A stretch of DNA of 64,000 nucleotides, taken from assembly GCA_964527765.1 (NCBI GenBank), contig CAZGQR010000002.1, positions 135,701 to 199,700 on the forward strand, in the 5' to 3' direction. A program made the position numbers and the translations under genes. Each line of letters opens with the position of its first letter. Position 1 is the first letter of the stretch. Under the pieces are notes generated by a model. That model saw only the letters and a program-made list of their open reading frames with translations, searched no databases and was not told where the DNA came from. This document shows positions 9,001-56,402 of the stretch, piece by piece. Origin of the DNA: an uncultured Planctomycetia bacterium (lineage in GTDB: Bacteria > Omnitrophota > Gorgyraeia > Tantalellales > Tantalellaceae).

Positions 9001-12000
9001 TTAGCCGCCGAAACAAAAAGCATCAGGCTTTATGAATCCAGGTTAAGAAGAAGAATGGGCGCGGATGTTCGGGAGGTATCTGTCCGCAGGGCTGCGGTAA
9101 CGGCACTGGGTCTTCTTTACGCGGCATTGATCGACCACGGGAGGAAAATCGATGTTTCGATGCTGGAACAGAGGTTAAAGGATCCCGATATGCAGGTTTC
9201 CGAAGCCGCGGCGAACGCGTTAAGCTCTGTCTATGTGGCTCAGATCAACGCCAAAGGGGATGTCGATATATCCGCATTGGAACAAAGACTGAATGCCGAT
9301 CGTCACCTCGTCCGCGAAAAGGCAATAAAAGCCCTGGGGCCGGTCTACAGGGCCTTGATCGAAAAAGGGAAGCAGGTCGATCTATCCGATCTAAAGAAAA
9401 TGCTGGGGAATGCCTGCTACTGGCAGGTCCGCAGGGCCGCAACAACGGCGCTGGGCCTTGTTTACGTTTCCCTGATCGAACAGGGAAGAAAGGAAGAGAT
9501 CGATCTACCGCTGTTGAGGGAGATGCTGAATGATATAGACCTGGGCATTCGCAGGGTCGCGGTCAGCGCGGTGGGGGAAGTTTATGCTGCCCTGATCAGG
9601 CAGGGAGAAAAGGTTGATTTTTCCGATATCGAGGAGAAATTGAACAGGTATGACGAAGAGCTCCGCAGGCGCGCGGCAGAACAGCTCTCCCTTATCCATG
9701 ACGCGCTGGAGGGAAGAGATAGGGAAACCGATCTATCCTCTCCGGAGGAAACAGGCCCCGCCGGTATCGCGGGGATAGAGTCCGGCATCATCCTGGATCA
9801 GGATTATGCAAAATACCTATTCTGGACAAGAGAGAAGCTTCCCTACCACGAAGCGGTCATAGATGAATATCTGGCGTCCTCCCAGCCTCAGATATTCATA
9901 AGTGATCTGAAGCGCCGGGCCGAACGGTGCGTCCGGAAAGGGTTTGATCCCGAGGACCGGAGACAGCTGTGGCTTGCCTTTGTCGGAGCGAAGCTGAACG
10001 GGATAGACATTACGCATCATGATTTTACTGAACGGGTTGAAAGATTGGTCGAATTCGATGAAAAACACCCCGGTTATTTTTCCGACCTTTTCGGCAAGAA
10101 CAAGAAACTTAAAGCGATAGAGATAGCTGCCGGCGAGACACACGTCGTGGACACAAGCGAAGTCGATCATGCGGTCCTGGATGCCCATCTGGAAGAACTG
10201 TCAAGTATAAAGGAAAGGGTGGACAGTTGCCGGTGGCTTTCGGAAGATTTCCCGAAGCATAAATACTTCAACCTGCGAAACCTGTATTACCAGTTAAAAC
10301 GCGAGCAGGCGAGACAGGCGGGAGAGTACACCGGCGGAAAGTTTTTCATAATATTACCTTCGGAAGACCGGATGAGGGAAGAGATCGCCGGGAACAGGAA
10401 ACTTTTCTACAGGATCGTTTTCAAGGCGGCGTATCTCCGTCTGGGCGATAGGGAAATATCGGGAAATTGTCTTGAGCTGATGCGGGACCTGGTAATAAGC
10501 GATATTCTGTCGGATGATGCCATGAAAGGACAGCTTCATTCCTCAGATCCCGAGACCAGGGTAACCGCGCTTAAGGTCTTCTATGAGGATTACAAGAACC
10601 ACCTGCCGGATGCCTCGGGAATAGGCATGGAAAAAGTCAGGGGCCTGCAAAAAGCGCTGGATGAACTGTCCGGGGAAATATACGCCGAAATGGCCAAGAT
10701 AAAGATCGTCCGCCGGAAAAGGCGCGAGACCTATCGCCTGATCCCGCAAGGATTTTTAAGCGTCTTTCGCGGGAGAGCCGGCATTATCGACTGCTCCTTT
10801 GACGCGGAATATCACGGTTCAGCTTTTACCCGGGCGATGCATGAGGATACGGGTTATTATTTTGTTTATAACAAAAAGCTGAAGGGATACGTGGGGCTGT
10901 GCGAAGGCCTGACGGAAAAAGGCGAAAAGGTCCTGACCGTAGATACCATTAATTCTCCCTCCCTGGACGGCGAGGAGATGCTGATCAATCTGTTCGTGGA
11001 ATTGGAAGAGGCGGCCAGAGAGCTGGGATGCAAGGGGATCGCCCTGCCGGAGAACATGGTCCGCTCCTTTAATTTTGATAACAAATACACCATTTCCGGC
11101 ATGGATGCGTACAGGAAAGCCAGGCCCATAAAGGTGGTTCCCGTGCATTCGAGCAGCTGGAAACGGCTTGCCGATACATTCGGGAAAGATTCATATAATT
11201 CTATGGAAAGCGGCAGGTTCAAGCTGCTTGATCTTGATTCCCTGCGCCCTCCCGCTCCGGTCAGCAAGAGCTATGAAGACGGCGACATCGGGATAGAACA
11301 GGTAGATGCCCGGGGCTGGCCGGAAATAAAAGACGACATAATGAAGGTGGAAGAAGAGTCCTTTACCGGTCCCCTGAGACAGACCGAGGAGGATATCTCG
11401 GAGACCTTTGAGGACCCTGATTCCATTTGCCTGGTCCTGAAGGATAAGGGCGCAATAGTCGGTTACATGATGGGAGGTCCCCTGGAGGACTATTATTACC
11501 TGGCCGGAATAGAGGAAGACCCCGGCTATGGCGAAGAAAATACCGTTTATATCGAGTCCATTGCCCTGTTGCGGCCATATCAAAGGTCGGGATTAGGCAA
11601 AAAACTCAGAAATAAATTCCTTGATATTGCTCAGCAGAGAGGGTACCGGCAGGTCAGCGGCCATATAAGAGAGGAAGTGGCCCGGAGCAGGGGGGATAAC
11701 ATACTGGGCGCATTCGGGGAATGGCAGGGGACGGACACCACTTTTTGTTATTACAGTAACCCCATCAGATCGAAAAAGGCGGAGAAAAAGCACGCGCTGC
11801 GCCTGATCTCGGAACTCGTCACCAGATCGCAGGATCATGACTGGGAAGCGGCCGACCGCGCGGGGGAACTTCCCGACTTGAAAGGCCTTTTGCTGGGGGC
11901 GACCGACGGGCACGGAAGGATCACGTTCCGGCCGGTCAGGAACTATCCGTTCGAATGGGCCATGCTCGGTTCCGAGGAAAAGGGGTGGGAGGCTGTTGTT

Positions 12001-15000
12001 TCGGAAAGCGGTGTCCGGAACGGGCGTTTTGAATTTACCGTGAGATTTACCAAAGAGGGCAGAGAGCCCGTGAAGAAGGTCTTTCAGGTAGGTCCTTACA
12101 CAAGGGAACTGACAGGCCGCAATAAAGCGGAAGGAAAAACGCTTACGGTGCTGGATATCGACGACCGCCCCGGACTTAAAGCCGTTGCCGAACTCATTGC
12201 CAGGCCTCCCGGATATAACTGGGAGACCGCCGAAAATGACGGCAGGATCCCCGACCTGAAAGGCCTCCGGCTGGGGGCCGTGGACGGCCGCGGAAGGATC
12301 AATTTTTCTCCCGTCAAGGGTTATCCGTTCCAGTGGCACGTGCTGGGGTTCTACGAAGAAGGATGGGAAGCCGTTATCGTGGAAACTGAGGCGTGGAAAG
12401 AATATTTTCAGTTCAGTGTGGAGCTTACCAAGCCGGGCAGGGAACCCCTCAGAAAGGTCTTCCAGATAGGTTCCCTCACGAAGGATCTGTCCGGACAGTA
12501 TACGGAAAAGGGAAAAACCTGCAAGGTGTTGGATATTGACGACCGTCTCGGCCTTAGGGCCATTTCCGGGCTTATTACCAGACCGCAGGATTATGACTGG
12601 GGCTCCGCCGTGCGCGACGGCAGGCTTCCCGACCTGAGGGGCCTGCGGCTGGGAGTGACCGGAACACAAGGAAAAATCAGTTTCCATCCCGTTACGAATT
12701 ATTTATTCCAGTGGCATGTCCTCGGCTTTGATGAAGAAGGGTGGGAAGCGGTTATCGTGGGCAGCAGCGTGCATAACGGGCATTTTCAGTTTCTTGTAAA
12801 ACTTACCAGAGAGGGAAGAGAACCGATCCACAGGATATTCCAGATAGGCCCTTATGCCAGGATCATATACGGCCAGAACAGGGAGCGAAGAACGAAAAGG
12901 CACGTTCTGGATATCGTGAGCCTGCGGGCCGTGGAGCGATTGATGAATAAGGAGGAATATGTCAGGAAAAACGGGAAGGCGGCCTGGAATGAAAGGACGA
13001 ATGTTTACGAAGTTGCGTCCCCGGAAACTTTAGATCCCGTTGAGAGCGAGGAACTGGTGCAGAAAGTATCCCAGAATTTACTCGCAGTTATCGCATCTAT
13101 GACGGACGAGGAACGTGAAATAGTCTTGCGAATAGTAAGAAGAGATACGGGTCACAACATCGTTTCCGAGGGGTATGCGCCGGCAGATGTCCTGAACGTG
13201 AAGAGGAAAATAAACAGCGCGCTTAATCCTTTGCTTGATGAATACGGCCTGATCGGCAAGCACGCCGTCGTCAAGGGCATCCGGGCGGACGAGAAGACAG
13301 GAGAGATGACGGCCCGGATAAAGATCGTGGGTTCCGACGAAGAAGTGCCGCCCCTTATCCTGTCCCCCGGAGGAAAGCTGGATGTCCGCGCCTTGAAAAC
13401 GGCATTTGAGAGCATGGAAGAAGTGAAGTCAAAATACAACAAGGGAATGATCCTTTCCATGCTGGACCTGCTCGAAGGATCACCGCCCGAACTTTATACT
13501 TATGACGTTCTTGTGGAGGACCTTTTCGGTTTTGTTTCGGGCGAGCGCGATCTTATTGCCCTTCATGAAAGCGCAGCTTCCGACCCCATGGCCTTGTTCC
13601 ATGAGGCCGGTGAGTATCTTATAAAGAAAAAGATATTAAAGCTGAAACTGAGGCATGAAAGACTGGTGATCTCGACAGGTAAACGCGAGACGTTCACTCT
13701 CAACCTGGGCGGCGAGGCGCTGGCCGTTGCCAGGAAGAACACGGCCAGTCCCCACTATCTTTTCAGGGCTTTGCAGAGACAGATATTCAAGGAGAGGGAC
13801 GGGGATCTGACGGTAAGGATAAAGAACGAGCAGAAGAAAAAACTGTCGCATTCAACTATAAAAAATATTCTTATCATAGGGCAAAAACTGGATGACAGGG
13901 ACTGGCGCGTAGCCACGGCCGCGATCAAGACATTGGCTTCCATTTATATCTTCCTGATCAAGCAGGGCAAAGACGTTGACCTTGCCGCGTTTAAGCGGAA
14001 GATCAAGAATAAGGACTGGTACGTGCGCAAGGCCGCGTTCGCCGCGTTAAAACGCGTTTGCGACGCTCAGGCCGAGCAGGTAAAGGGTACCGATGAAGAG
14101 GCGCTCGGCCTTATCCGGGAATTCGAGCACACTTACCGGTGGCAGAATATCGAAACCGCACCCGAATCGATGGATGCCATGCTCATCAACATGTTTGAAT
14201 GGGGTCAGATGTCCCTGGCCGAGCTGGAAGGGAAAACCGGGAGCAATGATATGAAAGTCAGTGAAGCCGCGGCCAAAGCTTTGTGTTCCGTCTATATTAC
14301 CGCGTTTAACGAAGGCGGGATCCCCAGGTCTTACCTGGAGAGGCAGCTGAACGACAAGAACTGGTATCTCCGCAGAGCGGCGATGGCAGCGTTAAGCTCT
14401 ATTTATGCTGATCTGGTCAGGCAGGGAGAAAAGGTCGATCTGTCCCTTTTTGAAGAGGGGCTGGAACATGATTACTGGCGCTTTAAAGAAGGGCGCCCGT
14501 TACTGGATGCCGTTTACGTCAGTCTGGTCAGGGAAGGAAAAATGTCCTCGTCCGATATAGAACAGAAACTGGATCACAGGCAACTTCATATCCAGGAATC
14601 CGCGACAAAGGCATTGGGCCCTGCGTATATGATAGAAGTTAAGCAGGGAAGAGTGCCTTTGTCCGCCTTGAAGCAAAAATTGGATCACCATAAGGACTGG
14701 CGTGTCCGCAGGGCCGCGCTTTCGGCATTGGAACCGTTTTGCATCGATGCGATCGAGCAGGACGGAGTTCTCGACGATGATTATGAAAAACATCTGATCT
14801 GGCAGAAAGAAGGCTTCCCCTATCAGGAAGAGGTGTTCAGCCGGTTCCTGGCCTCCCCCCGGCCGGATGACCCGCGGCGTTTTATAGATTCCCTGTTCAG
14901 GCAGAGGATCCTTGAGGGCATGGAGAAGGATGTAATGCCCTGCCTGGTGAACGCGCTGATCGCCGTTTCGGAAAGGAAGGAAAAGGTCATCCTGGCCCTT

Positions 15001-15558
15001 GACATTGATCTCGGGGAAGGCCAGATAAACACCCTTCTTGAAAAGTTGATCAGGGTGATCCCCGCGCTTAAAGACAATAACGAGGACCTGAAAAGGTTCC
15101 TGGATAATCTGCATGTGATCAAGGGCACGGGCAGGGATCTCAGTCTCAGGCTTAATAACGTGACCGATCCTTCCAGGGGTTCCGCGAAGAAGGAAGACGT
15201 GATAATCGTGACCAAGGACTCGAACGCGGAGCATTTCAGGGATTTCAAGGGCGCGGCTACCATGGCTGTTGTTGATGACGGCGCGTTCCCGGAGACGGCT
15301 TACCTGCCGCTTCTGGAGATCATGCTGTTTGCGATCAGCAAGCACCTCGGGTGGGATAAGAAGGCCCTTCTCAAATATTACGGGATGATACCGAACGTGG
15401 TTTCCGTAGAAGATCTGAATCCCGGGGATTATGCCGGGCTGTTCGGCGGGGATGAGAGGCTTCTGGTGATAAGGCTCGTGCCGGACGCCGTGCAGTTCGA
15501 CAAGGAAGAGCTCAGGGAGATGATGGACAGCATAAAGGTCATGCTGGCCAGGGCGTAA
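1..15558 (+). CDS. Giant multidomain protein (>=5166 aa; first ATG at 58, but the frame is open with no stop back to nt 1, so probably 5'-truncated by the window). Domain order: N-terminal helical region / SF1B Upf1-like helicase / GNAT-1 / TM hairpin / ~1100 aa unknown / TM hairpin / Ser-Thr kinase / TM hairpin / HEAT array 1 / unknown / GNAT-2 / 3x tandem 126-aa repeats / unknown / HEAT array 2 / conserved C-terminal domain
   Basis: Single uninterrupted ORF in frame 1. Recognisable motifs: helicase Walker A HGPGGTGKTT, motif II VVIIDEGG, ITPYKAQ and a GSENKVIIWSLVRSN motif-VI-like stretch; GNAT RGIGRAL and QRSGLGKKL motifs; kinase IGVGGMGVVY / ALKIL / HRDLKPDNILI / DFGIAK / SYMAPE. Strong AGGAGG RBS of the next gene follows 50 nt after the stop. 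No ATG-proximal SD at 58, so 58 is probably an internal Met. Confidence 0.85.
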   Translation, partial: KALEKALDIYKPYLLVASYMTRSVIGGMIRHYKTCVTIENRFREGAFDKALSQIEKLETEGGLSPEVLSFIGKKAARIGDIQKEITSIKERFESGDLSLRSARNQARDMQKECPGYPDTKELFEYFEQKRIEVAGYLDGAGSSIELRRPDEAFSLIRKAMAIDKENKAMARPLVRIAELYIQGKDFDSARKCIDILIDVEGWRDDPTAEKLIVLIWELCRSGRYGDAIELSDRLFEKKISRWYKTKLRRIKSVAGASTILDDLDIHLAMIRNALEAEKAEEAIEQKILKQYRTRLIEYKKISPTKTGFRIDRFKHLKPEEVRKLFKIGDSFEVFGPLPDGDKSESNGPVVDVSFRVTAVGERGWVAFEMPPSALEKKEEFIRDIPRRGFIRKQPNIPFELQKSVLDDLKWKLWESLRAVDYEAIGKKAFFEPTTGHPIIDIVLGLKEAPKRKGSVSYGGEGPWDEWQRKAIASATDLSIPVTIIHGPGGTGKTTVTVEATRQLSGEIIRQFSKKKSRILITSQSNPAVDNIWKRAASKGLKFIRLAFKSSSIDTKVMRNWERRQKHLEDARKRYYGEEGAGPVYIGTNMGWANDPYVRNSAFYLEPDVVIIDEGGRSTPGETLYAISRIKPDGKVIIVGDHLQLRPHGFTREDVVRIKSALSYKERELERLYTEENLSKVTTSLFEKLCQRRDIDYHLLPVNRRSHPAITGFVNAFGYLRHGVKLLPRDWDKEKKEPCEKDIVTVIDYGDGKIHERLERDGQDRVLNGRIYNTREVNEVIAEIDRFLNMKHRGRPRYGPADITIITPYKAQIRAITEALKIKAIVNDLDEGVIADRKEAVAVLSDLPLRKISKRMFPHIVQDVKIASGMIEELIGKLKNNTRISPREMRIYARIIRNAALYNIRKKHGPRSVGYKDITSIRRVKLTAEGVEDEEEVMEGDEELDVATIDSIQGSENKVIIWSLVRSNRQNDIGFLGAHDGPNRNLVAAGRAEEYLTVIGDISHTLAWADYGLEKTNYSDLRKASIRQTAAAFRDGLEHCRANNTIIRTSTDRRTGRNSENDRPRSPLGGVHEGFLQLPMRLFFRSAAYLSGALLAGLTSLLFSHSAKDPAPIKKDIGEKDTAGYDRIESDPAKIDPARLTEALKEHLGFLMFHDKDARAQISKYLEDKKCLTAVTEDGEVAGCLIFTVDEEKLSARQMDIYVRCYQADRGIGRALWEEAKEYFARKGITKAEALCDRPVQRDFWEHIRENYGGPLEMIIRDRDEGAERFYSVYAFAPLAFLPFVTVVPGLSILILASTAAFVLLATLSSRGDLRRYEKSLFLSSFGNARGSTNDTDNIDMEMLYKASRPITIKDVGIPWAVFPKTGVMNKIEFRSIPCSVLDSSAAVYRDSKRDKYVIFIASLLLRKKHRSDIALYFALIDIFLVLHDGILERSGAFDPKRTNILASQGGFYREVVCAMLNGGMAEEFRIAARLETELSGREKASFRGEDVLSEGDREHSDMEKSVAGRSIINFIEWMKEPEVTVVDFSGEIKKAEKVYRPARTDMSARKHQKRMAFWSEHRQMIGRFIRGEYRDDPDRARILRKLDGAESLVFIKSGIVPFSRTRVRPPIKKGVRSFAGKENWLRIRTKIENGRLRIEYLLAGDPYFAHVSDSYEEGSETPLSLGKELIEWMTDKERPMPQSVLSIEADIKGRVHLGTFDGESMYLDLGKRFKETEGGLRRKVWIKAKVSRRDAKELAVYLRPDGPEIMRFRPIYKDASGKKLDRLEKRKDLILDMFSRDALVHWAGGGKVDMDSDIEFIWPVEKMRIVKLGDDMVASAGVDYEGDDILVRGKVNVPGEKRIEFCRPDGRQVPVQVRFYDEESGTLLNELSELRRRFASWEAGEDAPNPMVISGIFGNGFEIAEDVFVRIPKAERVKSGRYLVVFAQPGEYKGIKLYALNGQNAPLKFISTYYFHKGKRIKTGWDEEAELLSAEDESAIKEILCRCGYIAFLRESSFSADKLARYILQTLGRTPLNGEDIVKVTAVHTHAAGRAIEKCLSGLVGKGKLLRTGSGMYLPVVRRKCANMGHHAPKISLDGTHYAFGISAGVSDDATVFLAAEASNGKKFPIAVVKDGKPVLWYRVIRRADGGVASCGLRSCRSEIELLGRKGTFFFENWRANTKRGKGRGVAGRIGDTVIKGKPGEYFSGIVSDGKIVRLDVWRNPCHRPYKVVARPQGDKGVPVYKVDKDSEAYKREYTTKEDKIRFWERELYDLSGAKRRKAIQQLEKLGARFDGIRALTLVDCLNSNYGVSEGCRLFVKTFGVIVDACIKSAWRDERSRKELLELLYITDSSVIRKAFRGIASRDPSLYADMLGAYTKKYSADYKNRHDAYHLALLEALRADLKAKRFDRFPDRALDVLREWYEHKLRSPGKTPHIRARTKEYLKTIENFRKKSRNFRRKNKIRLYSIDPFTAGLAAAGVSSLFGSIGVSILSPLVLTVAAIIFSFSWFAAGGEDAGKGKKEDAKAKGPQKDSPLAHLPDLHKRFAVKKKIGVGGMGVVYLVFDVNLRREAALKILFDQSERARERFRREIKRLRSLRHPNIVKVLGSSSVRKDYKGPSYIVMEYVEGESLMKFYRKRKYNNEKALLELISDILLPVAKGIRYIHGKNIIHRDLKPDNILISKTGVPKIADFGIAKLGAGATRSDEHSLTKTGYVVGSPSYMAPETFRNMIETWIPDDIESLLPDKKSPGYKEWKKSPRYKPYEYLKELRRLVNKRQFKKMSVQADIYSLGLIFCETCTGKLPFKYEGDDGIKKLRSKVFERIPLDEIAPKLYSEFRKLIEDMLDLDPNKRPTSKQLVRKLERIEKKLKKRLEEKKKPVFKTVLKYGLIAAGIGATALVTHLLFPGLIRSILNWLGIGFILTAGTMVSVTGDGGPGTETEELSRSSVKDLLALENELSDSSAEVRADAIAKLGPVYTAFIGQGRDVRDRVFNLEQKLADNHPAVREAAGSALRSIYAALAAETKSIRLYESRLRRRMGADVREVSVRRAAVTALGLLYAALIDHGRKIDVSMLEQRLKDPDMQVSEAAANALSSVYVAQINAKGDVDISALEQRLNADRHLVREKAIKALGPVYRALIEKGKQVDLSDLKKMLGNACYWQVRRAATTALGLVYVSLIEQGRKEEIDLPLLREMLNDIDLGIRRVAVSAVGEVYAALIRQGEKVDFSDIEEKLNRYDEELRRRAAEQLSLIHDALEGRDRETDLSSPEETGPAGIAGIESGIILDQDYAKYLFWTREKLPYHEAVIDEYLASSQPQIFISDLKRRAERCVRKGFDPEDRRQLWLAFVGAKLNGIDITHHDFTERVERLVEFDEKHPGYFSDLFGKNKKLKAIEIAAGETHVVDTSEVDHAVLDAHLEELSSIKERVDSCRWLSEDFPKHKYFNLRNLYYQLKREQARQAGEYTGGKFFIILPSEDRMREEIAGNRKLFYRIVFKAAYLRLGDREISGNCLELMRDLVISDILSDDAMKGQLHSSDPETRVTALKVFYEDYKNHLPDASGIGMEKVRGLQKALDELSGEIYAEMAKIKIVRRKRRETYRLIPQGFLSVFRGRAGIIDCSFDAEYHGSAFTRAMHEDTGYYFVYNKKLKGYVGLCEGLTEKGEKVLTVDTINSPSLDGEEMLINLFVELEEAARELGCKGIALPENMVRSFNFDNKYTISGMDAYRKARPIKVVPVHSSSWKRLADTFGKDSYNSMESGRFKLLDLDSLRPPAPVSKSYEDGDIGIEQVDARGWPEIKDDIMKVEEESFTGPLRQTEEDISETFEDPDSICLVLKDKGAIVGYMMGGPLEDYYYLAGIEEDPGYGEENTVYIESIALLRPYQRSGLGKKLRNKFLDIAQQRGYRQVSGHIREEVARSRGDNILGAFGEWQGTDTTFCYYSNPIRSKKAEKKHALRLISELVTRSQDHDWEAADRAGELPDLKGLLLGATDGHGRITFRPVRNYPFEWAMLGSEEKGWEAVVSESGVRNGRFEFTVRFTKEGREPVKKVFQVGPYTRELTGRNKAEGKTLTVLDIDDRPGLKAVAELIARPPGYNWETAENDGRIPDLKGLRLGAVDGRGRINFSPVKGYPFQWHVLGFYEEGWEAVIVETEAWKEYFQFSVELTKPGREPLRKVFQIGSLTKDLSGQYTEKGKTCKVLDIDDRLGLRAISGLITRPQDYDWGSAVRDGRLPDLRGLRLGVTGTQGKISFHPVTNYLFQWHVLGFDEEGWEAVIVGSSVHNGHFQFLVKLTREGREPIHRIFQIGPYARIIYGQNRERRTKRHVLDIVSLRAVERLMNKEEYVRKNGKAAWNERTNVYEVASPETLDPVESEELVQKVSQNLLAVIASMTDEEREIVLRIVRRDTGHNIVSEGYAPADVLNVKRKINSALNPLLDEYGLIGKHAVVKGIRADEKTGEMTARIKIVGSDEEVPPLILSPGGKLDVRALKTAFESMEEVKSKYNKGMILSMLDLLEGSPPELYTYDVLVEDLFGFVSGERDLIALHESAASDPMALFHEAGEYLIKKKILKLKLRHERLVISTGKRETFTLNLGGEALAVARKNTASPHYLFRALQRQIFKERDGDLTVRIKNEQKKKLSHSTIKNILIIGQKLDDRDWRVATAAIKTLASIYIFLIKQGKDVDLAAFKRKIKNKDWYVRKAAFAALKRVCDAQAEQVKGTDEEALGLIREFEHTYRWQNIETAPESMDAMLINMFEWGQMSLAELEGKTGSNDMKVSEAAAKALCSVYITAFNEGGIPRSYLERQLNDKNWYLRRAAMAALSSIYADLVRQGEKVDLSLFEEGLEHDYWRFKEGRPLLDAVYVSLVREGKMSSSDIEQKLDHRQLHIQESATKALGPAYMIEVKQGRVPLSALKQKLDHHKDWRVRRAALSALEPFCIDAIEQDGVLDDDYEKHLIWQKEGFPYQEEVFSRFLASPRPDDPRRFIDSLFRQRILEGMEKDVMPCLVNALIAVSERKEKVILALDIDLGEGQINTLLEKLIRVIPALKDNNEDLKRFLDNLHVIKGTGRDLSLRLNNVTDPSRGSAKKEDVIIVTKDSNAEHFRDFKGAATMAVVDDGAFPETAYLPLLEIMLFAISKHLGWDKKALLKYYGMIPNVVSVEDLNPGDYAGLFGGDERLLVIRLVPDAVQFDKEELREMMDSIKVMLARA
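1390..3010 (+). other. Domain of giant ORF: SF1B (Upf1/DNA2/NAM7-like, AAA_11/AAA_12-type) helicase
   Basis: WQRKAIASA..IIHGPGGTGKTT (Walker A at ~1456-1482), DVVIIDEGG (~1819-1845), IIVGDHLQLRP, YNTREVNEV, ITIITPYKAQIRAI, IDSIQGSENKVIIWSLVRS, NRNLVAAGRAEEYLTVIGD. Order and spacing are typical of Upf1-like helicases. Confidence 0.75.
3410..3780 (+). other. Domain of giant ORF: GNAT-family N-acetyltransferase-like domain 1
   Basis: Beta-strand/acetyl-CoA loop pattern ..VAGCLIFTVDEE..IYVRCYQADRGIGRALWEEAKEYFARKGITKAEA.. (R/QxxGxG/A motif). Confidence 0.55.
7565..8545 (+). other. Domain of giant ORF: Hanks-type Ser/Thr protein kinase catalytic domain, flanked by predicted TM hairpins at ~7340-7490 and ~8590-8745
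   Basis: GxGxxG (IGVGGMGVVY), VAxK-like ALKIL, HRDLKPDN catalytic loop (~7958-7981), DFG (~8017-8025), APE (SYMAPE). Hydrophobic stretches LAAAGVSSLFGSIGVSILSPLVLTVAAIIFSFSWF and LIAAGIGATALVTHLLF / ILNWLGIGFILTAGTMVSV lie on either side. Confidence 0.8.
8800..9700 (+). repeat. Domain of giant ORF: HEAT-like repeat array 1 (about 8 units of ~38-40 aa: VRxAAxxALGxVYxALIxQGxxVDxSxLEQxL)
   Basis: Recurring VRADAIAKLGPVY / VREAAGSALRSIY / VRRAAVTALGLLY / VSEAAANALSSVY / VREKAIKALGPVY / VRRAATTALGLVY / IRRVAVSAVGEVY units. Confidence 0.7.
11290..11700 (+). other. Domain of giant ORF: GNAT-family acetyltransferase-like domain 2
   Basis: ..ICLVLKDKGAIVGYMMG..VYIESIALLRPYQRSGLGKKLRNKFLDIAQQRGYRQVSGH.. 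(canonical QxxGxG/A acetyl-CoA motif). Confidence 0.6.
11830..12945 (+). repeat. Three tandem in-frame repeats of ~378 nt / 126 aa in the giant ORF (unit: DWExA..DGRxPDLKGLRLGxxDGxGRIxFxPVxNYPFxWxVLGxxEEGWEAVIVxS..F.F.V.LTKxGREPxxKxFQxGxxTxxLxGxxxEKxKTxxVLDIDDRxGL)
   Basis: Units at ~11830-12215, 12216-12590 and 12591-12945; roughly 50-60% aa identity between units judged by eye; no family assignment possible. Confidence 0.8.
13860..14790 (+). repeat. Domain of giant ORF: HEAT-like repeat array 2
   Basis: DWRVATAAIKTLASIYIFLIKQGKDVDL.., WYVRKAAFAALKRV, VSEAAAKALCSVYITAFNEG, WYLRRAAMAALSSIYADLVRQGEKVDLS, WRVRRAALSALEPF. Same repeat flavour as array 1. Confidence 0.65.
14935..15555 (+). other. 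C-terminal ~205-aa domain of the giant ORF, homologous (~60% aa identity) to the C-terminus of the downstream 1450-aa protein; family unknown
   Basis: [92 protein letters not shown] aligns colinearly with 19340-19957 of the next gene. Both proteins end with ML-A-K/R-A stop. Confidence 0.8.
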
Positions 15559-15607
15559 TGCGGTACATGATCGAAGAATAATATTCAAATAAATAAGGAG
15601 GAGAAAA

Positions 15608-18600
15608 ATGAGCGGTTTGCGCAAAAATCTTGTAAGAAGCATTGTTTTTATAACGGTCATTTCAATGGTCTGGCAAGGTGTTGTCTGGGCCGATCCGGGT
15701 GTTATCCAGCCGGATAGACTGCAGGTCAGGACCCTTTTTAGTCTCCCGGACATGGAAGAGCGGGTCTCTCCCCTGGTTTCCGGTTATGTCGTCAAAAGGC
15801 TTGCTGAATTTGAACGGGACCTAACGAAGCAACACCCTTCGCGCATCGAAGATGCGGCTAAGGAACTTATTGTACAGATCAAGAAAGACGCTGATATTCC
15901 GGAAGATCTTTTGAAAATCGCTGCTTCCTCCGCGAAAGGGGAACTGGTAGTAATCCTGGGTTCACATGCGGTGAGATATTACAATCACAGAAGAGAGGAC
16001 ACGCAGGATCCGGGTCCCGGCCGCAAGGTTATCAAAGACATGAAAATAGGGGGATATTTTTCAAGGCAAATACTTGAGGTTTCCGGTAAGGAATACTTCT
16101 CGGGCGGTGCCGAGGTCTACTGGTCCGAATGGGAAGTCGTTAATTCTAACACATTGCGCGCCAGGGGCCGGAAGGGCATAATCGCGAAACGCGGCCCGGA
16201 CGGGAAATTCGATATAATGAGCGGCGGGCTGCCGGTCGATCCGGTCGATAAAGAAGTAGAGGATCATATCCAGGCCTTGAAAGATAAAAATAAGAATGTC
16301 CGCATAGCCGCGATAGGGAATTTAGGCAAAATAGGCGATGAAAAGGCGGTTCAGCCCCTTATCAAGGTCTTGAGGAGTGCGGATTGGACTGTCCGCGGAG
16401 CTGCGGCAGTAGCTTTAGGCAAAATAGGCGATGAAAGAGCAGTATTGCCTCTTATCCAAGCCTTAAAAGATACGACTGCGTATGTCCGTTCCGCCGCCGC
16501 GGAAGCTTTGGGAAAAATAGGCGATAAAAAAGCAGTTGAGCCGCTTATCCAAGTTGCTTTAAAGGACCAGGAAAAACGTGTCCGCGGAACCGCGGCGGAA
16601 GCTTTAGGCGCAATAAATGATGAAAGTGCTGTCCAGTCTCTTATCCTGGCTTCAAAAGATGAAGATCTACATATCTGCGAAGCCGCAACGAAAGCTTTAG
16701 GCAAAATGGGAGAGCCGTCGGTTGAGTTGCTCGTCCAGGCCTTAAAAGATCGGGATGAACGTGTCCGCAAAACCGCGGCAGAGGCTTTAGGTGAAATAAA
16801 TGATGAAAGAGCAGTTCCGCATCTTGTCCGGGCTTTAAAAGATACGGAGTGGATTGTCCGTGGAAATGCAGCGATAGCTTTAGGTGAAATAGGTGACGAA
16901 AACGCGGTCCCGCTTCTTATCCGGACTTTAAGAGATGAAGATTCGTATGTCCGCTTTACTGCGGTGCATGCCTTGGGGCAAATAAGCGATGAAAGAGCAG
17001 TTAAACCTCTTATCCGGGCTTTAGAAGATGAAGATTTAGATGTCCGTGAAGCCGCAGCGGAAGCCTTGGGTAAGATCGGTAAACCGGCGATTGAGCTGCT
17101 TATCCAGGCTTTAACAAAAGATGAAAGTAAGAGTGTCCGCGCAGGTGCGGCGGAAGCCTTAGGCAAAATAGGCGATAAAAGCACGGTCCGGTTTCTGGCC
17201 CAGGCTTTAATAAAAGATGAAAATGAGCGTGTCCGCGAAGCCGCAGCGAAGGCCTTAGGCGAGGTGGGCGATAAAGAAGTAGCCGGGCTTCTGGTTCAAG
17301 TCCTTATCAAAAACGATGAAGACCCAGATGTTCGCAAAGCTGCGGTAGAAGCTTTAGGTAGGATAGGCGATGAAAAGGCAGTTCTGTCTCTTATCCGAAT
17401 TTTTAATGACAAGAGCATGGTGGGGTACATAGGGCGTGTTCCCGAAGCCATAATAAGATCCTTAGGCGAAATAGGCGGTGAAAAAGCGGCCGAGTTTCTT
17501 ATTCAGCTTTTGAAAGATGAAGATTATTCTGCTCGTATAATCGCGGCAGAAGCCTTGGGCAAAATAGGTGATGATAAAGCGACCCAGGTTCTTACCCGAA
17601 CTTCAAAACAGGATAAAGATATGTATGTCCGCCGAGCCGCAGCGGAAGCTCTGAAGGCAATACGTAATAAGGCCGCGGCAGCGGTAGAATACTTCTCAAG
17701 CGGTGCCGAGGTCAACTGGTCCGAATGGGAAGCCGTTGATTCTAATACGCTGCGCGCCAAAGGCCAGAAGGGCATAATCGCGAAACGCGGCCTGGACGGG
17801 AAATTCGATATAATGAGCGGCGGGCTTTTTGCTGATATCACCGCTTCGGATAACGAACCGGAAAATAATGAGCTAAACATTGCGAAGATCGTTCCTTCGG
17901 AAACTACCTGTCTTGGTAAGCCCACGGTGAGGCTTGATGTTGAGTTATTGGGAGGCGCGAAGGGACACTTCGTCGTTCCGGCCGGGACCTCAACAGGCGA
18001 GGACGAAGCCAGGACAGTGGGCGTTGAAAAAGCAGTGAAGAACCTGGCCGGGATCCATACTGAAGTCACGGATAGAGGATTGAAAGCCGATCAGCTGACG
18101 GATATTGCCCGGGTAATGCTGGAAATGGGCAAGGATAAACTGGGCGCTGAAGCAACCCTGTCTTATCAGATGGCTTCGGCCTGGGCTGCGGCCCGCCAGA
18201 GAGGTTTTGAGCCCTATGAATTTATCCGGGAGATCGCTCCTGATATTGCTTCCAGATCCGTTCCCAAAACGAAAATACAATATAACATCACCAACGGAGG
18301 GGAACATGCCGAAAATGATCTGAACATGCAGGAATTCATGGTTGTTCCTGTAGGCAGATCCACGGCGGAAGCGAACCGGATGTGTGATGAGATAGACAGG
18401 CAACTGGGGCTTATTTACCGGAGCCTGGGATTAAGCGCCGATCCCGATGATAAGGGAGTGGGAGAAAAACGCGGCAAGGAAGGCGGTTACAAGATCGCGG
18501 ACCTGACCAGCGAGAGATTAAAGGAGATCTACGCGAATCCCCCCGAAAAGAGCTTTGAATATCTGAACGTGGCCGAGTTAAAGAAACGCGGCAATATCGG

Positions 18601-19960
18601 TGTCCACGACTTTGTCCTGGAATGCATGGTCGCCGCCGTTAAAAACGCCGGTTACGTACCGTCGACTTCCGGGGAGATCGGGACCGTGGCTATTGCCCTG
18701 GACCCGGCTACCAGTTCCATGGTGGTCGAAGGACACAAGGACCTTTATCATTATGAAGGTGCGCAGATCGGCTCAAAAGATCTGGCCGGCATATTCGAAA
18801 GATGGGTTGCAAGATACCCCATAACTTCCATCGAGGACGGCATGGGTGAAAATGACTGGGACGGCTGGATGCGCCTTGTCGATAAAGTCGGCGACAAAGT
18901 CCTGTTGATCGGCGATGACAGTCTTGTGACCCAGGCGGCCCGCTTGACAAAGTTCATCGAGCTGCTCAGGGAGAAAGGGTATGTTGATAAAAAGACCGGT
19001 AAGGTTACCAGGAAGATCGGCATCCTGATCAAATTGAACCAGAATGGTTTTCTGATCACCGGCATAAATGATCCCGGTAAAGGTTACTTGGGAACTTTAG
19101 AGGTTATTCGCCTGGCGAAACGCCATGGGATCGAGGTTGTAGTATCTCATCGATCCAAGGAAGCGGAACCCGGGGAAAGGGAAGTCTCTATCGCTGAGCT
19201 TGCGGCCGGGGTGGATGCCTATGCCCTGAAGTCCGGCGATCATGTTCAGGGGATCCGAGCTGTCAAAGAGGACAGACTGGCCGAGATCGACAGGAGAGAA
19301 CGGGAACTTTTCGTGAAAAAGGTAATGGATAACGCCGAGACCGTGATACCCGGTCTTGTGGATGCGTTGATAACCGCTTCGGAAAAAGATAAAAAGGTCG
19401 TTCTGGCATTCGATACCGACCTTGGGGGAGGGCGGATGAACGTTCTGCTCGGAGAACTGATCGAGGCCATCTCCGGGCTTAAGGATAATAATGAAGATCT
19501 GAAGAGGTTCTTGGCCAATCTGTATATGATCAAAGGCAAAGGTAAGGATCTTGGTTCGAGGCTGGGCAATATAACCGATCCTTCCAAAGGTTCCGTGAAG
19601 AAAGAGAACGTTATAGTCGTAGCCAAGGGCTCAAATGAGGAATATTTCAAAAGCCTTAAAGGCACAGCTACCATGGCTATTGTCGACGACAGCGCGTTCC
19701 CGGAAACAGCTCACTTACCCTTGCTGGATGTTATGCTTCTGGCGGTCGGCAGTTATCTTGGGTGGAGCGAGAACAGACTGTATGAGATTTACAGCAGCAT
19801 TCCGGACGTTGAGTCTCTCAGTCTTGAGGAATATGTTAAATTGTGCAAGAAAGATCAAAGATCCCTGATAATAAAACTTGTGCCCAATGCCGTGCAGCTT
19901 GAGACAGAAAAGCGCAGGGAGATAATAGACGCAATAAAAGATATGCTTGCCAAGGCATAG
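15608..19960 (+). CDS. 1450-aa secreted/periplasmic (signal peptide) protein: N-terminal unknown region / 47-aa module / about 15 PBS-lyase-type HEAT repeats / second copy of the 47-aa module / complete enolase-like domain / shared C-terminal domain
   Basis: AAGGAGG RBS 8 nt upstream of the ATG; N-terminal [28 protein letters not shown] signal-like sequence; HEAT units [27 protein letters not shown]; enolase motifs (see the domain feature below). Confidence 0.85.
16091..16240 (+). repeat. Copy 1 of a ~150-bp intragenic direct repeat (about 90% nt identity to 17686-17835) encoding [47 protein letters not shown]
   Basis: Compared by eye with copy 2; long identical runs, e.g. gggcataatcgcgaaacgcggcc and gacgggaaattcgatataatgagcggcgggct. 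Confidence 0.8.
16255..17680 (+). repeat. HEAT repeat array (PBS lyase / HEAT_2 type, about 15 units of 31 aa) within the 1450-aa protein
   Basis: [73 protein letters not shown] and further units with a 93-nt period. Confidence 0.85.
17686..17835 (+). repeat. Copy 2 of the ~150-bp intragenic direct repeat ([47 protein letters not shown])
   Basis: See copy 1. The two copies bracket the HEAT array. Confidence 0.8.
17870..19200 (+). other. Enolase-like domain (full-length, ~440 aa) embedded in the 1450-aa protein; catalytic and metal-binding residues appear conserved
   Basis: Colinear with enolase: [12 protein letters not shown] (cf. PSGASTGxxEA), [23 protein letters not shown] (cf. INGGxHAxNxxDxQEFMI), [10 protein letters not shown] (cf. 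GDEGG), AIALDPATS (cf. AMDxAASE), [17 protein letters not shown] (cf. PIVSIEDxxxExDWxG), [10 protein letters not shown] (cf. LVGDDLxVT), ILIKLNQNG (cf. ILIKxNQIG), [13 protein letters not shown] (cf. ISHRSGETED, with an insertion), ALKSGD (cf. IKTG). Confidence 0.8.
19340..19957 (+). other. C-terminal ~205-aa domain of the 1450-aa protein, homologous to the giant-ORF C-terminus
   Basis: [112 protein letters not shown]. Confidence 0.8.
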
Positions 19961-20004: not shown

Positions 20005-21417
20005 TTATAGCTTACAGCTTTCTATAAGTGCCCGCGCTTTATCCAATGTTTCCCTGTATTCCGCTTCCGGGTCGGAGTCGGCGACGATGCCGCCCCCGGC
20101 CTGGAAATAGACATCCCGTCCTTTCATTATCATGGTGCGGATAGCGATATTCAGGTCCATGGTGCCGTGAAAACTGATATAACCTATCGAACCGGTATAG
20201 ACATTCCTTCTGGTCGGCTCCAGTTCGTCGATTATCTCCATGGCGCGTATCTTGGGGCACCCTGATATGGATCCCCCGGGAAACGCGGCTTTTATTATAT
20301 CGATAAGGCCCGTATCGCTGTTTATCCTCCCCTTTACCACGGATATGGTCTGGAACACCGTCGGGTAGGTCTCTATTCTCCTGTGCTCGGCGACTTTCAC
20401 GGAGCCCGGTATCGCTATCTTGCCGAGGTCGTTCCTTTCAAGGTCCACGATCATGGAGAGTTCCGCCCCGTCCTTGCCGCTTTTTCTCAAGGCGGCTTCA
20501 AAAGCGGAATCTTCTTCGGCATTGTTTCCGCGCGGCCGGGTGCCTTTCATCGGCCTGGTCTCGACGACGTCATCCCTGACCCTGAGAAAAAGTTCCGGGG
20601 AGGAAGAGATTATCCTGGACCGGCTGAAATTCAGATAAGCGCTGAAAGGGGACGGGTTTATCCTGTTCAATTTCAGGTAAAGCTCATAAGGGTGCAGCGG
20701 CCACCCGGTCCTGAATCTCTGCGACAGGCATGCCTGGTATATGTCGCCGGCGCGGATATAGTCTATGACCTTCCGTACGGATCTTGTATAACCCGCTTTC
20801 GAGAAATTCGACCTGAAGACGGGCTTAAAGGATCCCGCCGGCGGGGGCGTACCTGTTTTCAAAGGCGCGGACCTGACAGTCCCTTTTATTTTGTTCATGA
20901 GCCGGCCTGCTTTTTCATGCCCGCCGGAGCCGGTACCCAGTACGCTTATATATAATTGGCCGGGTTCAAGTTTGTCATGGATGAGCAGCGCCCGGTAGAA
21001 GGCGAAATATATATCGGGCAGGTTCAGGTCATCCTTTGATCTTTTCGGGAGTTTCTCGACGGCGTCCTTGAGGTCGTAGGATAAGTAACCGATCCCTCCT
21101 GCCGTGAAGGGCAGGGGAGCGGGGTTATCGGTCCTGTATGTCCTGATGATGGAGTCGAGACATTCAAAAGGGTTGCTCTTGACCGCGAGACTGTGGCCGT
21201 TGAACTTGAGCCGGAGGTCGTTATCCTTGCCGCTCAGGACAAGGAACGGTTCTATCCCGATAAATGAATACCTGCCCGCGTCGGTTTTCATGGAGCTGTT
21301 CAGAAGAGAGCTTTCCGGAAGATCAGCGAAGCGCATGAACAGTTCCTCCGGCGGACAGTTCAAGCTGATCTTTTCAATGACAGGCGCTCGGCTTATTTCG
21401 GGAAGATATCTTTCCAT
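20005..21417 (-). CDS. Chorismate-utilising enzyme, aminodeoxychorismate synthase / anthranilate synthase component I (PabB/TrpE family); PabB is favoured by the folate genes folC and folE in the window and the absence of trp genes
   Basis: C-terminal chorismate-binding motifs: RPMKGTRPRG, SISGCPKIRAMEIIDELE, RNVYTGSIGYISFHGTMDLNIAIRT, FQAGGGIVADSDPEAEYRET; overlaps the upstream GATase gene by 1 nt. Confidence 0.8.
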   Translation of the reverse strand: MERYLPEISRAPVIEKISLNCPPEELFMRFADLPESSLLNSSMKTDAGRYSFIGIEPFLVLSGKDNDLRLKFNGHSLAVKSNPFECLDSIIRTYRTDNPAPLPFTAGGIGYLSYDLKDAVEKLPKRSKDDLNLPDIYFAFYRALLIHDKLEPGQLYISVLGTGSGGHEKAGRLMNKIKGTVRSAPLKTGTPPPAGSFKPVFRSNFSKAGYTRSVRKVIDYIRAGDIYQACLSQRFRTGWPLHPYELYLKLNRINPSPFSAYLNFSRSRIISSSPELFLRVRDDVVETRPMKGTRPRGNNAEEDSAFEAALRKSGKDGAELSMIVDLERNDLGKIAIPGSVKVAEHRRIETYPTVFQTISVVKGRINSDTGLIDIIKAAFPGGSISGCPKIRAMEIIDELEPTRRNVYTGSIGYISFHGTMDLNIAIRTMIMKGRDVYFQAGGGIVADSDPEAEYRETLDKARALIESCKL

Positions 21418-21418
21418 G

Positions 21419-21976
21419 TTACATCTCTATGAAGTTCTTTATCAGCCTGTGGCCGTTCTCCGTAAGGAACGATTCGGGATGGAACTGCAGGCCCACCAGC
21501 GGCCATTCTTTATGCTCGAGGCCCATTATGACCTTGTCTTCGGTCCAGGCGGTGATCTCCAGGCAGGAAGGCACGTCACTTGCCCTGAGAGAATGATACC
21601 GCGCTCCCGAAAAAGGACTTGGAATACCCCTGAATATCTTCCCGCCGTTATGATAGATGGGGGAGGTTTTCCCGTGCACTATTTCGGAGACCCGCGAGAT
21701 CCTGCCCCCGAAAACGCCGGCGATGCACTGGTGCCCGAGGCAGATCCCCAGTATAGGCGTGCCGGGGCCGATTTTTTTTATGACCTCGTTCGATATACCG
21801 GCGTCGGCCGGCGTCCTGGGCCCCGGCGAGATAATGATCTTATCCGGATTCAGCGACTCTATTTCGTCTATACCGATCTTGTCGTTCCTTTTTACCAGGA
21901 GTTTCACGCCATGCTCGGCAAAGATCTGGTAGAGGTTATAAGTGAAGGAGTCGTAGTTATCGATCAAGAGGTACAT
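21419..21976 (-). CDS. Glutamine amidotransferase class I, component II of ADC/anthranilate synthase (PabA/TrpG)
   Basis: MYLLIDNYDSFTYNLYQ.., catalytic GICLGHQ, ..HPES near the C-terminus. Confidence 0.85.
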   Translation of the reverse strand: MYLLIDNYDSFTYNLYQIFAEHGVKLLVKRNDKIGIDEIESLNPDKIIISPGPRTPADAGISNEVIKKIGPGTPILGICLGHQCIAGVFGGRISRVSEIVHGKTSPIYHNGGKIFRGIPSPFSGARYHSLRASDVPSCLEITAWTEDKVIMGLEHKEWPLVGLQFHPESFLTENGHRLIKNFIEM

Positions 21977-22811
21977 TTGGCAACTTTCTCAGCGATTTTA
22001 CAACTTCCCGGGTAATACGGTCCGGGGTGGATGCCCCGGCCATTATACCCACATTTCTGGCGTTTCTGAACCACGCCGGTTTCAGATCTAAAGCGCATTC
22101 TATCCAGTAAGTTCTTTTATTTATTTTCCTGGATATCTGGTAAAGTCTTTTGGTGTTGGCGCTTGTTCTTGATCCGATGATGAGGACCAGGTCGTTCTTC
22201 TCGGGGAGAGACTTGATCTCTTTCTGTTTTATTCTGGTTATCCGGCACGTCGTATTGTAGAGTTTCACCCGGGGTATGATCTTCTTCAGGCGTTCCATTA
22301 TTTCGTTTATGTTATCGATCGTCTGGGTCGATTGCGTTATTACCGCAGCTCTTTTTATGCGGGCCAGTTTCCTGACCGGGATATCGCGGGGGGATTCTAT
22401 GGTTATGGGCTTTTTCCTGAGCTGTCCGGCGATACCTTTTACTTCCTCGTGGTTGTTGTCCCCGATTATTATTATTTTGCTGTTTTTCTCCAGGCGCCTG
22501 GCGATCCTGTATATATCCTTGACCATCGGGCATGTCGCGTCCACTATCTTGTATCCGCATGCTTTGGCCTTACGGAAGGTCCTTTTCGGGGCGCCATGCG
22601 CCCTTATGATGAGAATGTTATCCTTACCCGGCTTTATCCTGCTGATCTTCCTGATGCCTTTTTCTTCAAGTTCCCGGACGACAAAATCGTTGTGTACTAT
22701 GTCGCCCAGTACGCAGGCAGTCTTTTCCTTGTCGGCCAGCTTTTTGCTTATCTCTATGGCCCGTTTTACGCCGAAGCAGAATCCTGAACTTTTTGCGACA
22801 TTTATTTTCAT
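21957..22811 (-). CDS. ispH: 4-hydroxy-3-methylbut-2-enyl diphosphate reductase (IspH/LytB)
   Basis: MKINVAKSSGFCFGVKRAIEI.., VLGDIVHN, ATCPMV, GASTPD. Confidence 0.85.
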   Translation of the reverse strand: MKINVAKSSGFCFGVKRAIEISKKLADKEKTACVLGDIVHNDFVVRELEEKGIRKISRIKPGKDNILIIRAHGAPKRTFRKAKACGYKIVDATCPMVKDIYRIARRLEKNSKIIIIGDNNHEEVKGIAGQLRKKPITIESPRDIPVRKLARIKRAAVITQSTQTIDNINEIMERLKKIIPRVKLYNTTCRITRIKQKEIKSLPEKNDLVLIIGSRTSANTKRLYQISRKINKRTYWIECALDLKPAWFRNARNVGIMAGASTPDRITREVVKSLRKLPNVPLDR

Positions 22812-50605: not shown

Positions 50606-50671
50606 AGAAAAAACCGTAAGAATAATATATATAATATGTTAGGTGAAACACTGGCTTTTGTATCTCTTATC

Positions 50672-50700
50672 TTGTCTTCTCTCCAGGCCTGGGTTATACT
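50672..50700 (+). promoter_or_regulatory. Candidate sigma70-like promoter (TTGTCT-N17-TATACT) for FecR paralog 2
   Basis: ttgtct at 50672-50677, tatact at 50695-50700; downstream GGGGAGGG RBS before ATG 50765. Confidence 0.35.
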
Positions 50701-50764
50701 TTAAATGTATAGTATTAAAATTCAAGTTGCCGGGCTTTTAACGCAATAAACAGGGGAGGGAAAA

Positions 50765-54773: not shown

Positions 54774-56402
<1,629 letters not shown>

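Follow-up and report, generated by a model that had tools for sequence, protein, structure and literature searches.

A C-terminal domain shared by two adjacent genes

Our study describes a C-terminal domain (CTD) that closes two adjacent, co-oriented genes in a 64-kb stretch of DNA (contig CAZGQR010000002.1, positions 135,701 to 199,700; the whole stretch is called the window hereafter), and an N-terminal module (NTD) with which this domain is nearly always paired. The first gene is a giant open reading frame (ORF) on the forward strand (positions 1 to 15558, listed as 58 to 15558). Its frame is already open at the window start, with no stop codon between base 1 and the listed ATG at nucleotide (nt) 58; the protein therefore has at least 5185 amino acids (aa), and its N-terminus, likely an NTD, probably lies upstream of the window. 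The second ORF (15608 to 19960, forward strand) encodes a protein of 1450 aa consisting of the NTD, a HEAT-repeat cassette, an enolase and the CTD. Copy 1 of the CTD comprises the last 221 aa of the giant ORF (14893 to 15555, forward strand; aa 4946 to 5166 counted from the ATG at nt 58; hidden Markov model (HMM) match at 5.7e-86) and copy 2 the last 217 aa of the HEAT-enolase protein (19307 to 19957, forward strand; aa 1234 to 1450; HMM match at 3.6e-81), and tblastn finds exactly these two copies in the window. The preliminary description had placed the domain after the second HEAT array of the giant protein and after the enolase domain of its neighbour, and the Pfam coordinates agree, with HEAT matches up to about aa 4895 in the giant ORF and Enolase_C at aa 997 to 1228 in the second.

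The C-terminal regions of the two proteins share 121 identities over 221 positions by BLASTP (55%, with 74% positives; E = 1e-84). They are colinear with one gap region of four residues, and this segment is also the top match when the full-length proteins are compared (E = 1e-67). The alignment reaches the final residue of both proteins (...IKVMLARA in the giant and ...IKDMLAKA in the HEAT-enolase protein), the tails MLARA (15541 to 15555, forward strand) and MLAKA (19943 to 19957, forward strand) being instances of the family motif described below. The shared, colinear region ending at the same point relative to the stop codon is thus real, as first described, but its extent and identity, given then as about 205 aa and about 60%, are corrected to 218-221 aa, following the HMM and AlphaFold boundaries, and 55-56%. 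At the nucleotide level the copies are 66% identical overall and 50% identical at third codon positions, their longest exact match is 13 nt, and each has nearer relatives in other organisms than in its window neighbour. The pair therefore goes back to an old paralogous duplication kept under purifying selection, and not to a recent copy or gene conversion.

A family of large proteins with the same C-terminus

An exhaustive HMM search with the profile of the CTD alone, a check proposed in the preliminary description, covered 1.84 billion protein representatives clustered at 50% identity and retrieved 307 clusters at E <= 1e-3, 158 of them at E <= 1e-10. The proteins are otherwise unrelated in many cases and range from about 650 to about 5900 aa, the longest having 5873 aa. 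Among the best 150 of the 307 clusters, which were analysed in detail, the CTD is almost always the last domain: it ends at most 15 aa from the C-terminus in 147, and its end coincides exactly with the last residue in 119 of 137. The terminal residue is alanine in 138 of 142 representatives, compared with 15% of background ORFs, and is the most conserved position of the domain together with D37 and P139 (residue 1 being aa 4946 of the giant protein). The family ends in hydrophobic-[LI]-x-x-Ala-COOH, the final three positions being [S/T/A/R/K]-[K/R/A/S/N]-Ala-COOH, as in -SKA, -ARA and -TKA.

All taxonomically labelled members, distant ones included, come from Candidatus Omnitrophota/Omnitrophica (among them Ca. 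Tantalella remota), with the exception of one metagenome-assembled genome labelled Planctomycetia; among labelled members, the family thus appears to be restricted to the Omnitrophota. The exceptional genome, labelled 'uncultured Planctomycetia' (loci L002/L006), encodes a family member of 3547 aa, and the flanking proC, PNP and ileS genes are syntenic with those of a metagenome locus (L018) that also carries a CTD protein (P0009). The Planctomycetia label may be an artefact of binning or of taxonomy, or else the family may extend outside the Omnitrophota.

Fold and conserved residues of the CTD

The AlphaFold model of the CTD, computed from an alignment of 41 diverse members, is a confident one (predicted local distance difference test (pLDDT) 93.5; predicted template modelling score 0.91). 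It describes a three-layer α/β/α sandwich of about 220 aa with five parallel-type strands and nine helices, arranged as an N-terminal helix, a β-α-β-α-β-α-β unit, three helices, a fifth strand and a long C-terminal helix. The tail of the protein is modelled as the end of this folded helix (pLDDT about 82-92). The core belongs to the very common Rossmann/flavodoxin-like fold class, but for the domain as a whole the searches described below show no specific relative. The conserved residues include D37 at the end of β1 (96%), N/D102 (97%), T107 at the end of β3 (83%), D128-D129 at the end of β4 (about 70%), Y137-x-P139-x-x-E142 (96, 98 and 88%), K/R150 (93%) and Y163 (91%), and L195-x-P197-x-A199 is also conserved.

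Neither of the two copies nor the family consensus gives a meaningful match in Pfam or NCBIfam; CTD profiles of 4 or 41 members find nothing among PDB sequences, and a Foldseek search of the PDB with the model yields nothing at E <= 1e-3, with TM-scores of at most 0.35. The preliminary description could not match the region to a known family, and it indeed behaves as an autonomous conserved module without an acceptable counterpart in Pfam, NCBIfam, PADLOC or the PDB. Affiliation with a defence system was rejected, PADLOC returning one weak match to GajA (E = 0.0045) for one copy of the CTD and none for its paralog or the consensus. The T9SS (type IX secretion system) C-terminal sorting domain (Por_Secre_tail) was likewise set aside, having no Pfam or NCBIfam match here even at E <= 1-5 and being a β-sandwich of about 80-100 aa, as was the dockerin (PF00404), which has no Pfam match and a different fold. 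Membership in the HAD superfamily was considered and not accepted, and neither was membership among the CheY-like receivers (PF00072), of which a Pfam match and a phospho-acceptor Asp at the end of β3 would be expected.

A weak Toprim-like signal, far below threshold, lies around the motif VVLALDxDLGEGEI. With the Toprim model (PF01751), for which the cut-off is 23.1 bits, copy 2 scores 12.6 bits (E = 0.16), whereas neither copy 1 nor the consensus is matched, and the Toprim-domain protein 1t6t of the PDB is found with CTD profiles at E-values of 0.44-0.93, below significance. The Glu-bearing strand of Toprim domains is absent from the CTD, in which the Asp strand is the first strand and is preceded only by a helix, and no more than 59% of members have an acidic residue two positions beyond D37. 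Toprim membership was not accepted on account of the sub-threshold Pfam score and of the departure from the Glu-strand/DxD pattern. The preliminary description had held that a common enzyme fold found in unrelated contexts would speak against a shared targeting role; half of this is seen, since the Rossmann-like core is common, but it points to no specific enzyme family and the domain has not been seen in unrelated contexts.

An N-terminal module paired with the CTD

The NTD was delimited by iterated HMM searches as a module of about 165 aa at the start of the HEAT-enolase protein (15608 to 16102, forward strand). It has a basic n-region, a hydrophobic segment at aa 8-26 and the sequence VWA-DP, followed by LQVRTLF ... 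RYYNH ... Y-F-x-x-Q, the pattern conserved among members being W-A-[DN]-P, L-Q-P-x-T-x-F, ... R-Y-Y-N-P ... Y-L-x-x-Q. There is no Pfam match to it, and, like the CTD, it is also absent from NCBIfam and the PDB. The flank before the hydrophobic stretch is rich in K/R and that after it is acidic, as for an N-in orientation, a V-x-A site is present, and 41 of the 84 NTD members have no further hydrophobic segment. By this hydropathy and charge heuristic, the segment would fit a Sec signal peptide or an N-in membrane anchor.

Among the 150 best CTD proteins, 84 begin with the NTD, always at their very N-terminus, which amounts to 84 of the 115 members of at least 600 aa, many of the remainder of the 150 being fragments. 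Across about 390 kb of fetched loci it starts eight of nine complete CTD genes, and wherever it occurs the same ORF or the one after it carries a CTD. The NTD and CTD also co-vary in their pairwise identities (r = 0.75; none of 300 permutations was as high). One apparent exception is the amylase-like protein P0014, which ends in a CTD: 4 nt upstream of it and in another frame lies a 555-aa ORF that starts with the NTD (L017, 160-4387). The gene is thus split or frameshifted, with the module on its upstream ORF; the arrangement reflects a frameshift within a single gene or else a natural division of one bookended unit. A further protein, P0009, is cut by the contig edge.

Cargo between the two modules

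The region between NTD and CTD, here called cargo, was scanned with Pfam in 68 family members. Metabolic domains include enolase, iPGM, PGK, PTA, 6PGL/GlcN6P isomerase, amylase-like, carbamoyltransferase, PRTase and deaminase domains, and signalling or other domains include Pkinase, superfamily 1 (SF1) helicase, HATPase, PAS, HD, methyltransferases, β-CASP, CofD, HTH, sigma-70 region 2 and HEAT/TPR. The cargoes are mutually unrelated, and many members have no Pfam match at all. The NTD is present in members with iPGM, helicase or kinase domains.

A direct view of cargo exchange comes from the HEAT-enolase protein itself. Its HEAT array (16244 to 17689, forward strand; HEAT_2, 3.4e-153) is part of a presumably inserted cassette flanked by direct repeats of 49 aa that are 82% identical (left copy 16094 to 16243, right copy 17690 to 17836, both on the forward strand). 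P0004, an ortholog of 872 aa (76% identity over enolase and CTD, 60% over the NTD), is without residues 159-754 of the window protein, which is exactly the HEAT cassette. The same terminal modules and enolase are thus found with and without the cassette, and cargo has therefore been exchanged inside a fixed frame; from the sequences, the HEAT array looks like an insertion, or a repeat-mediated gain or loss, between NTD and enolase.

The enolase domain (17861 to 19306, forward strand; Enolase_N and Enolase_C) is divergent, with insertions, and reaches 212.5 bits against the TIGR01060 equivalog model, for which the cut-off is 300. Aligned to PDB entry 4yws, it keeps the catalytic motifs STG, NGGxHA, QEFM, ALD, IEDG, GDD, IKLNQ, SHRS and K-[ST]-G. 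An ordinary stand-alone iPGM is encoded in the same window (54774-56402), iPGM, PGK and PTA being found fused in other CTD family members, and the bookended glycolytic enzymes appear to be extra copies.

The giant ORF carries an SF1 helicase (AAA_11/AAA_12), two GNAT domains, a Ser/Thr kinase and two HEAT arrays ahead of its CTD, as well as several hydrophobic segments and three tandem repeats of about 127 aa. These repeats (11794-12951; aa 3913-4298) are 51-53% identical and have no Pfam match, and related repeats occur in the giant protein of another locus (L004). A junction motif of 58 aa (D-[QD]-D-Y-x-K-x-L-x-W ... P-Y-x-E-x-V ... L-A-S) follows each of the two HEAT arrays (about 9780-9960 and 14740-14890; 43% identity), and the CTD follows only the second. 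A cryptic second CTD after the first array was rejected, with an hhalign probability of 0.4%; only the 58-aa motif is repeated there.

Gene order and neighbourhood

Closer CTD alignments gave five genome and six metagenome loci, and the sequence read comprised the 64-kb window and about 330 kb of related loci. Tandem CTD genes occur at four independent loci: the window; L008, where a protein of at least 3552 aa is followed after 16 nt by one of 1330 aa; L015, with 5734 aa and then 2003 aa; and contig JBAROK010000027.1, with 1296 aa, a giant without CTD and then 1663 aa. The downstream genes of the last contig are syntenic with those of the window (trpE-trpG-ispH-polyprenyl synthase-SpoIIE-GT4). 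The flanks of all CTD loci are housekeeping genes, for example trpE/G, ispH, polyprenyl synthase, proC, ileS, recA, his and pur genes.

Upstream of the trpE-trpG-ispH-polyprenyl synthase block (20005-23914 in the window), the same slot holds CTD genes with differing bodies in several Omnitrophota genomes (L004, L005 and L012), those of L004 and L005 adjoining trpE/ispH, and it appears to be a hot spot for variable CTD genes. The rest of the window is also of a housekeeping kind: trpE/G, ispH, polyprenyl synthase, PP2C phosphatases, GT4, GH130, glycogen phosphorylase, uvrD, era, mgtE, purH, a folC-like gene, mnmE, folE, L,D-transpeptidase, accA, mlaE/F, FecR-domain proteins, iPGM, sat/cysC, deoxyhypusine synthase and leuS, with no secretion or sorting apparatus among them. 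The two FecR-domain proteins (257 and 327 aa) are adjacent and are followed by an ORF without known family and by a CHASE2-PP2C (SpoIIE) protein (49832-51748), and GC skew and AT skew are unusually high at 50-52 kb.

Discussion

The NTD and the CTD appear, from the sequences compared here, to be a pair of bookends around freely exchangeable cargo. Their terminal positions, the invariant free C-terminus, the near-obligate pairing of the two modules and the arbitrary nature of what lies between them argue for a localisation or assembly frame rather than for a domain that serves one particular cargo. The reading we favour, and to which we would give chances somewhat short of even, is that the CTD is an Omnitrophota-specific localisation or assembly tag. 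A shared targeting, sorting or docking function had been suggested in the preliminary description from the two window proteins alone; the autonomy of the domain, its terminal placement, the conserved final Ala and its pairing with a signal-like NTD speak for this suggestion, but no sorting apparatus accompanies the genes at the roughly 15 loci examined. Co-assembly of the two neighbouring window proteins into one complex, suggested at the same time, is plausible.

The mechanism that we propose begins with the NTD, which with its basic n-region, hydrophobic segment and VWA/DP site would use the Sec route to bring the protein to the cytoplasmic membrane or across it. The CTD would then dock the protein to a common partner, through a conserved polar pocket formed by D37, T107, D128-D129, N102, Y137-x-P139-x-x-E142 and K/R150 and through the free ...x-x-Ala-COOH end. 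Candidates for this partner are a component of the envelope, a scaffold of HEAT/TPR repeats and the NTD of a neighbouring protein. Diverse enzymes, including both window proteins, would thereby be gathered at one place, and these gatherings may be the multi-enzyme surface or periplasmic assemblies proposed for Omnitrophota giant proteins. The order of the genes, with a CTD-ending gene followed by an NTD-starting gene, is the one that head-to-tail docking would lead one to expect.

Several observations weigh against such a tag. No secretion or sorting genes flank the CTD at the roughly 15 loci examined, where a co-occurring apparatus had been proposed as a check, and these loci show no conserved neighbour that could be a partner, receptor or sorting enzyme. 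At about 220 aa and with its α/β fold, the CTD is much larger than, and unlike, known sorting signals, and its conservation is strongest in polar residues at the C-terminal strand ends, where ligand-binding or catalytic sites are classically placed. The cargo often requires ATP, S-adenosylmethionine (SAM) or acetyl-CoA (kinases, helicases, methyltransferases, GNAT, HTH), which is hard to square with the periplasm or the cell surface. At least one genuine family member, the PTA protein P0062, has no NTD and no obvious signal peptide. Finally, the call of a signal peptide is a simple heuristic of hydropathy and charge, and the segment is long enough for an uncleaved anchor.

The size of the CTD, its Rossmann-like core and the conserved polar pocket at the strand ends make a ligand-binding or catalytic role a serious rival. 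The domain would then hold a Mg2+/phosphoryl or nucleotide pocket, as in receiver, HAD or Toprim-like domains, and would regulate or complement the cargo, coming last merely because it is tolerated there. The confident model of a three-layer sandwich, the residues D37, T107 and D128-D129 at the C-terminal strand ends, the conservation of N102, Y137-x-P139, E142 and K/R150, the weak Toprim-like signals at VVLALDxDLGEGEI (E = 0.16 in Pfam; 0.44-0.93 for 1t6t) and the large share of signalling domains (Pkinase, PAS, HATPase, HD) among the cargo would all suit this explanation. However, the searches returned no significant sequence or fold match to any enzyme or ligand-binding family, an acidic residue two positions past D37 is kept by just 59% of members, and D128/D129 by just about 70%. 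A pocket would also leave unexplained the terminal Ala, the terminal position, the near-obligate pairing with a signal-like NTD and the want of a common theme in the cargo. We hold this role to be rather unlikely, if by no means far-fetched; it would be compatible with a tag, the ligand of the pocket then being, for example, a polymer of the envelope or a peptide of the partner.

It could also be that the CTD is a secretion or translocation domain for a dedicated export machine encoded elsewhere in the genome, its cargo being effectors that, already exported by Sec or still cytoplasmic, cross the outer membrane or enter prey or host cells, in a logic resembling that of the T9SS CTD or of the BID domain of Bartonella type IV secretion system effectors. 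The strictly C-terminal position with its invariant last residue, the signal-like N-terminal segment and the several CTD paralogs per genome would fit such a domain. The interior of another cell would also be a sensible destination for cargo dependent on ATP, SAM or acetyl-CoA and for the eukaryote-like modules (Ser/Thr kinases, HEAT, TPR, methyltransferases, helicases); Omnitrophota have indeed been described as host-dependent or predatory (PMC10066038; 10.1101/2023.11.21.568195). Yet secretion-system genes lie near none of the examined loci, the fold and size of the CTD differ from those of known secretion signal domains, multi-pass membrane giants among the cargo are unlikely to be translocated, and the glycolytic part of the cargo (enolase, iPGM, PGK, PTA) suggests metabolism more than effectors. 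We regard this explanation as improbable. Virtually no weight is left for the idea that the similarity is a trivial by-product, either of recent local duplication or gene conversion or of shared low-complexity or HEAT-like stretches that have no independent function. The two window genes do lie side by side in one orientation, each with HEAT repeats, but the idea is refuted by the 50% identity at third codon positions and the longest exact match of 13 nt, by the closer relatives of each copy elsewhere, by the 307 clusters that share the domain and by the compact globular α/β model, which is not that of a repeat.

Turning back to the localisation or assembly tag that we favour, terminal modules that frame a variable cargo are of a known kind; these particular modules, the fold of the CTD, the invariant Ala and the restriction to Omnitrophota are new. 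The T9SS CTD of Bacteroidota is similar in being a conserved domain at the extreme C-terminus of unrelated cargo, with an N-terminal Sec-type signal, a restriction to one phylum and several paralogs per genome. It differs in being a β-sandwich of about 80-100 aa with Pfam and TIGRFAM models of its own, whereas the domain described here has 220 aa, an α/β fold, no model and an invariant Ala, and no T9SS machinery (PorU/PorV/SprA) was seen in the window or the related loci. Dockerin-cohesin pairs and the docking pairs of polyketide synthases (PKS) and non-ribosomal peptide synthetases are also terminal modules that assemble different enzymes into one complex, and the C-terminal dock of a PKS pairs with the N-terminal dock of the next gene's product, much as a CTD gene followed by an NTD gene recurs here. 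However, dockerins are Ca2+-binding repeats of about 70 aa and PKS docks are short helices, neither having sequence or fold similarity to the CTD, and the NTD starts with a signal-like hydrophobic segment. The likeness to T9SS CTDs and dockerins drawn in the preliminary description thus does not extend to the fold.

RTX/LapA-type giant adhesins combine an N-terminal retention module with a C-terminal signal for the type I secretion system (T1SS), and autotransporters end in a β-barrel. Both resemble the proteins described here in having conserved terminal export or anchoring modules and a large variable middle; the T1SS signal is unstructured, there is no N-terminal hydrophobic signal in these adhesins, and neither type of terminal signal matches the NTD/CTD proteins. 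Toprim, HAD and receiver domains share the three-layer α/β sandwich and the acidic strand ends, the CTD motif hhLALDxDLGEGEI resembling the DxD strand of Toprim. The Toprim-like CWB2 domain is the cell-wall-anchoring module of the Cwp proteins of Clostridioides difficile, and would be a precedent for a Toprim-like fold acting as a non-catalytic anchor on variable cargo. By analogy, a free C-terminus with a short conserved motif is also found in the peroxisomal targeting signal PTS1 (-SKL, bound by Pex5) and in the EEVD motif bound by TPR co-chaperones, and the large proteins of Omnitrophota are full of TPR and HEAT repeats; unlike these tails, that of the CTD is modelled as closing a folded helix.

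Also close in kind are the Archaeovorins and other giant multi-enzyme proteins of the phylum, which are defined as having at least 30,000 aa (West-Roberts et al., 2023; 10.1101/2023.11.21.568195). They share with the proteins described here an origin in Omnitrophota, arrays of HEAT/TPR repeats, enzymes of glycolysis and others of a cytoplasmic type, kinases, and both signal peptides and transmembrane segments by prediction, and the window proteins likewise combine HEAT arrays, many enzyme domains and hydrophobic segments in one polypeptide. They differ in length, the window proteins having at least 5185 and 1450 aa and the CTD family about 650-5900 aa, and the latter are defined by their NTD/CTD bookends. 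Extracytoplasmic multi-enzyme assemblies scaffolded by HEAT repeats have already been proposed for the giant proteins of this phylum, and the same work notes the paradox that enzymes of a cytoplasmic type have a predicted location outside the cell (10.1101/2023.11.21.568195; 10.64898/2026.06.07.730766). Neither the NTD and CTD nor any common terminal domains are mentioned in that literature.

Taken further, and as a speculation that we regard as doubtful in its entirety, the NTD and CTD might constitute a new sorting or self-assembly system specific to Omnitrophota, in which exported bookended proteins would be captured through their CTD by a receptor, by HEAT/TPR arrays or by the next NTD. 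Such a system could build an extracytoplasmic multi-enzyme layer that includes lower glycolysis, or load effectors destined for prey, and would be a smaller, modular counterpart of the giants of this phylum. For the giant multi-enzyme proteins of Omnitrophota, the NTD of about 165 aa and the CTD of about 220 aa with its terminal Ala now provide two sequence handles with which their location and assembly can be addressed, and these handles mark a large class of proteins, with at least 307 clusters at 50% identity. Absent from both Pfam and NCBIfam, the two modules can be registered as new domain families, which would help to annotate a phylum that is as yet poorly understood. Should docking be the right reading, the bookends would amount to a natural scaffold system for the co-localisation of arbitrary enzymes.

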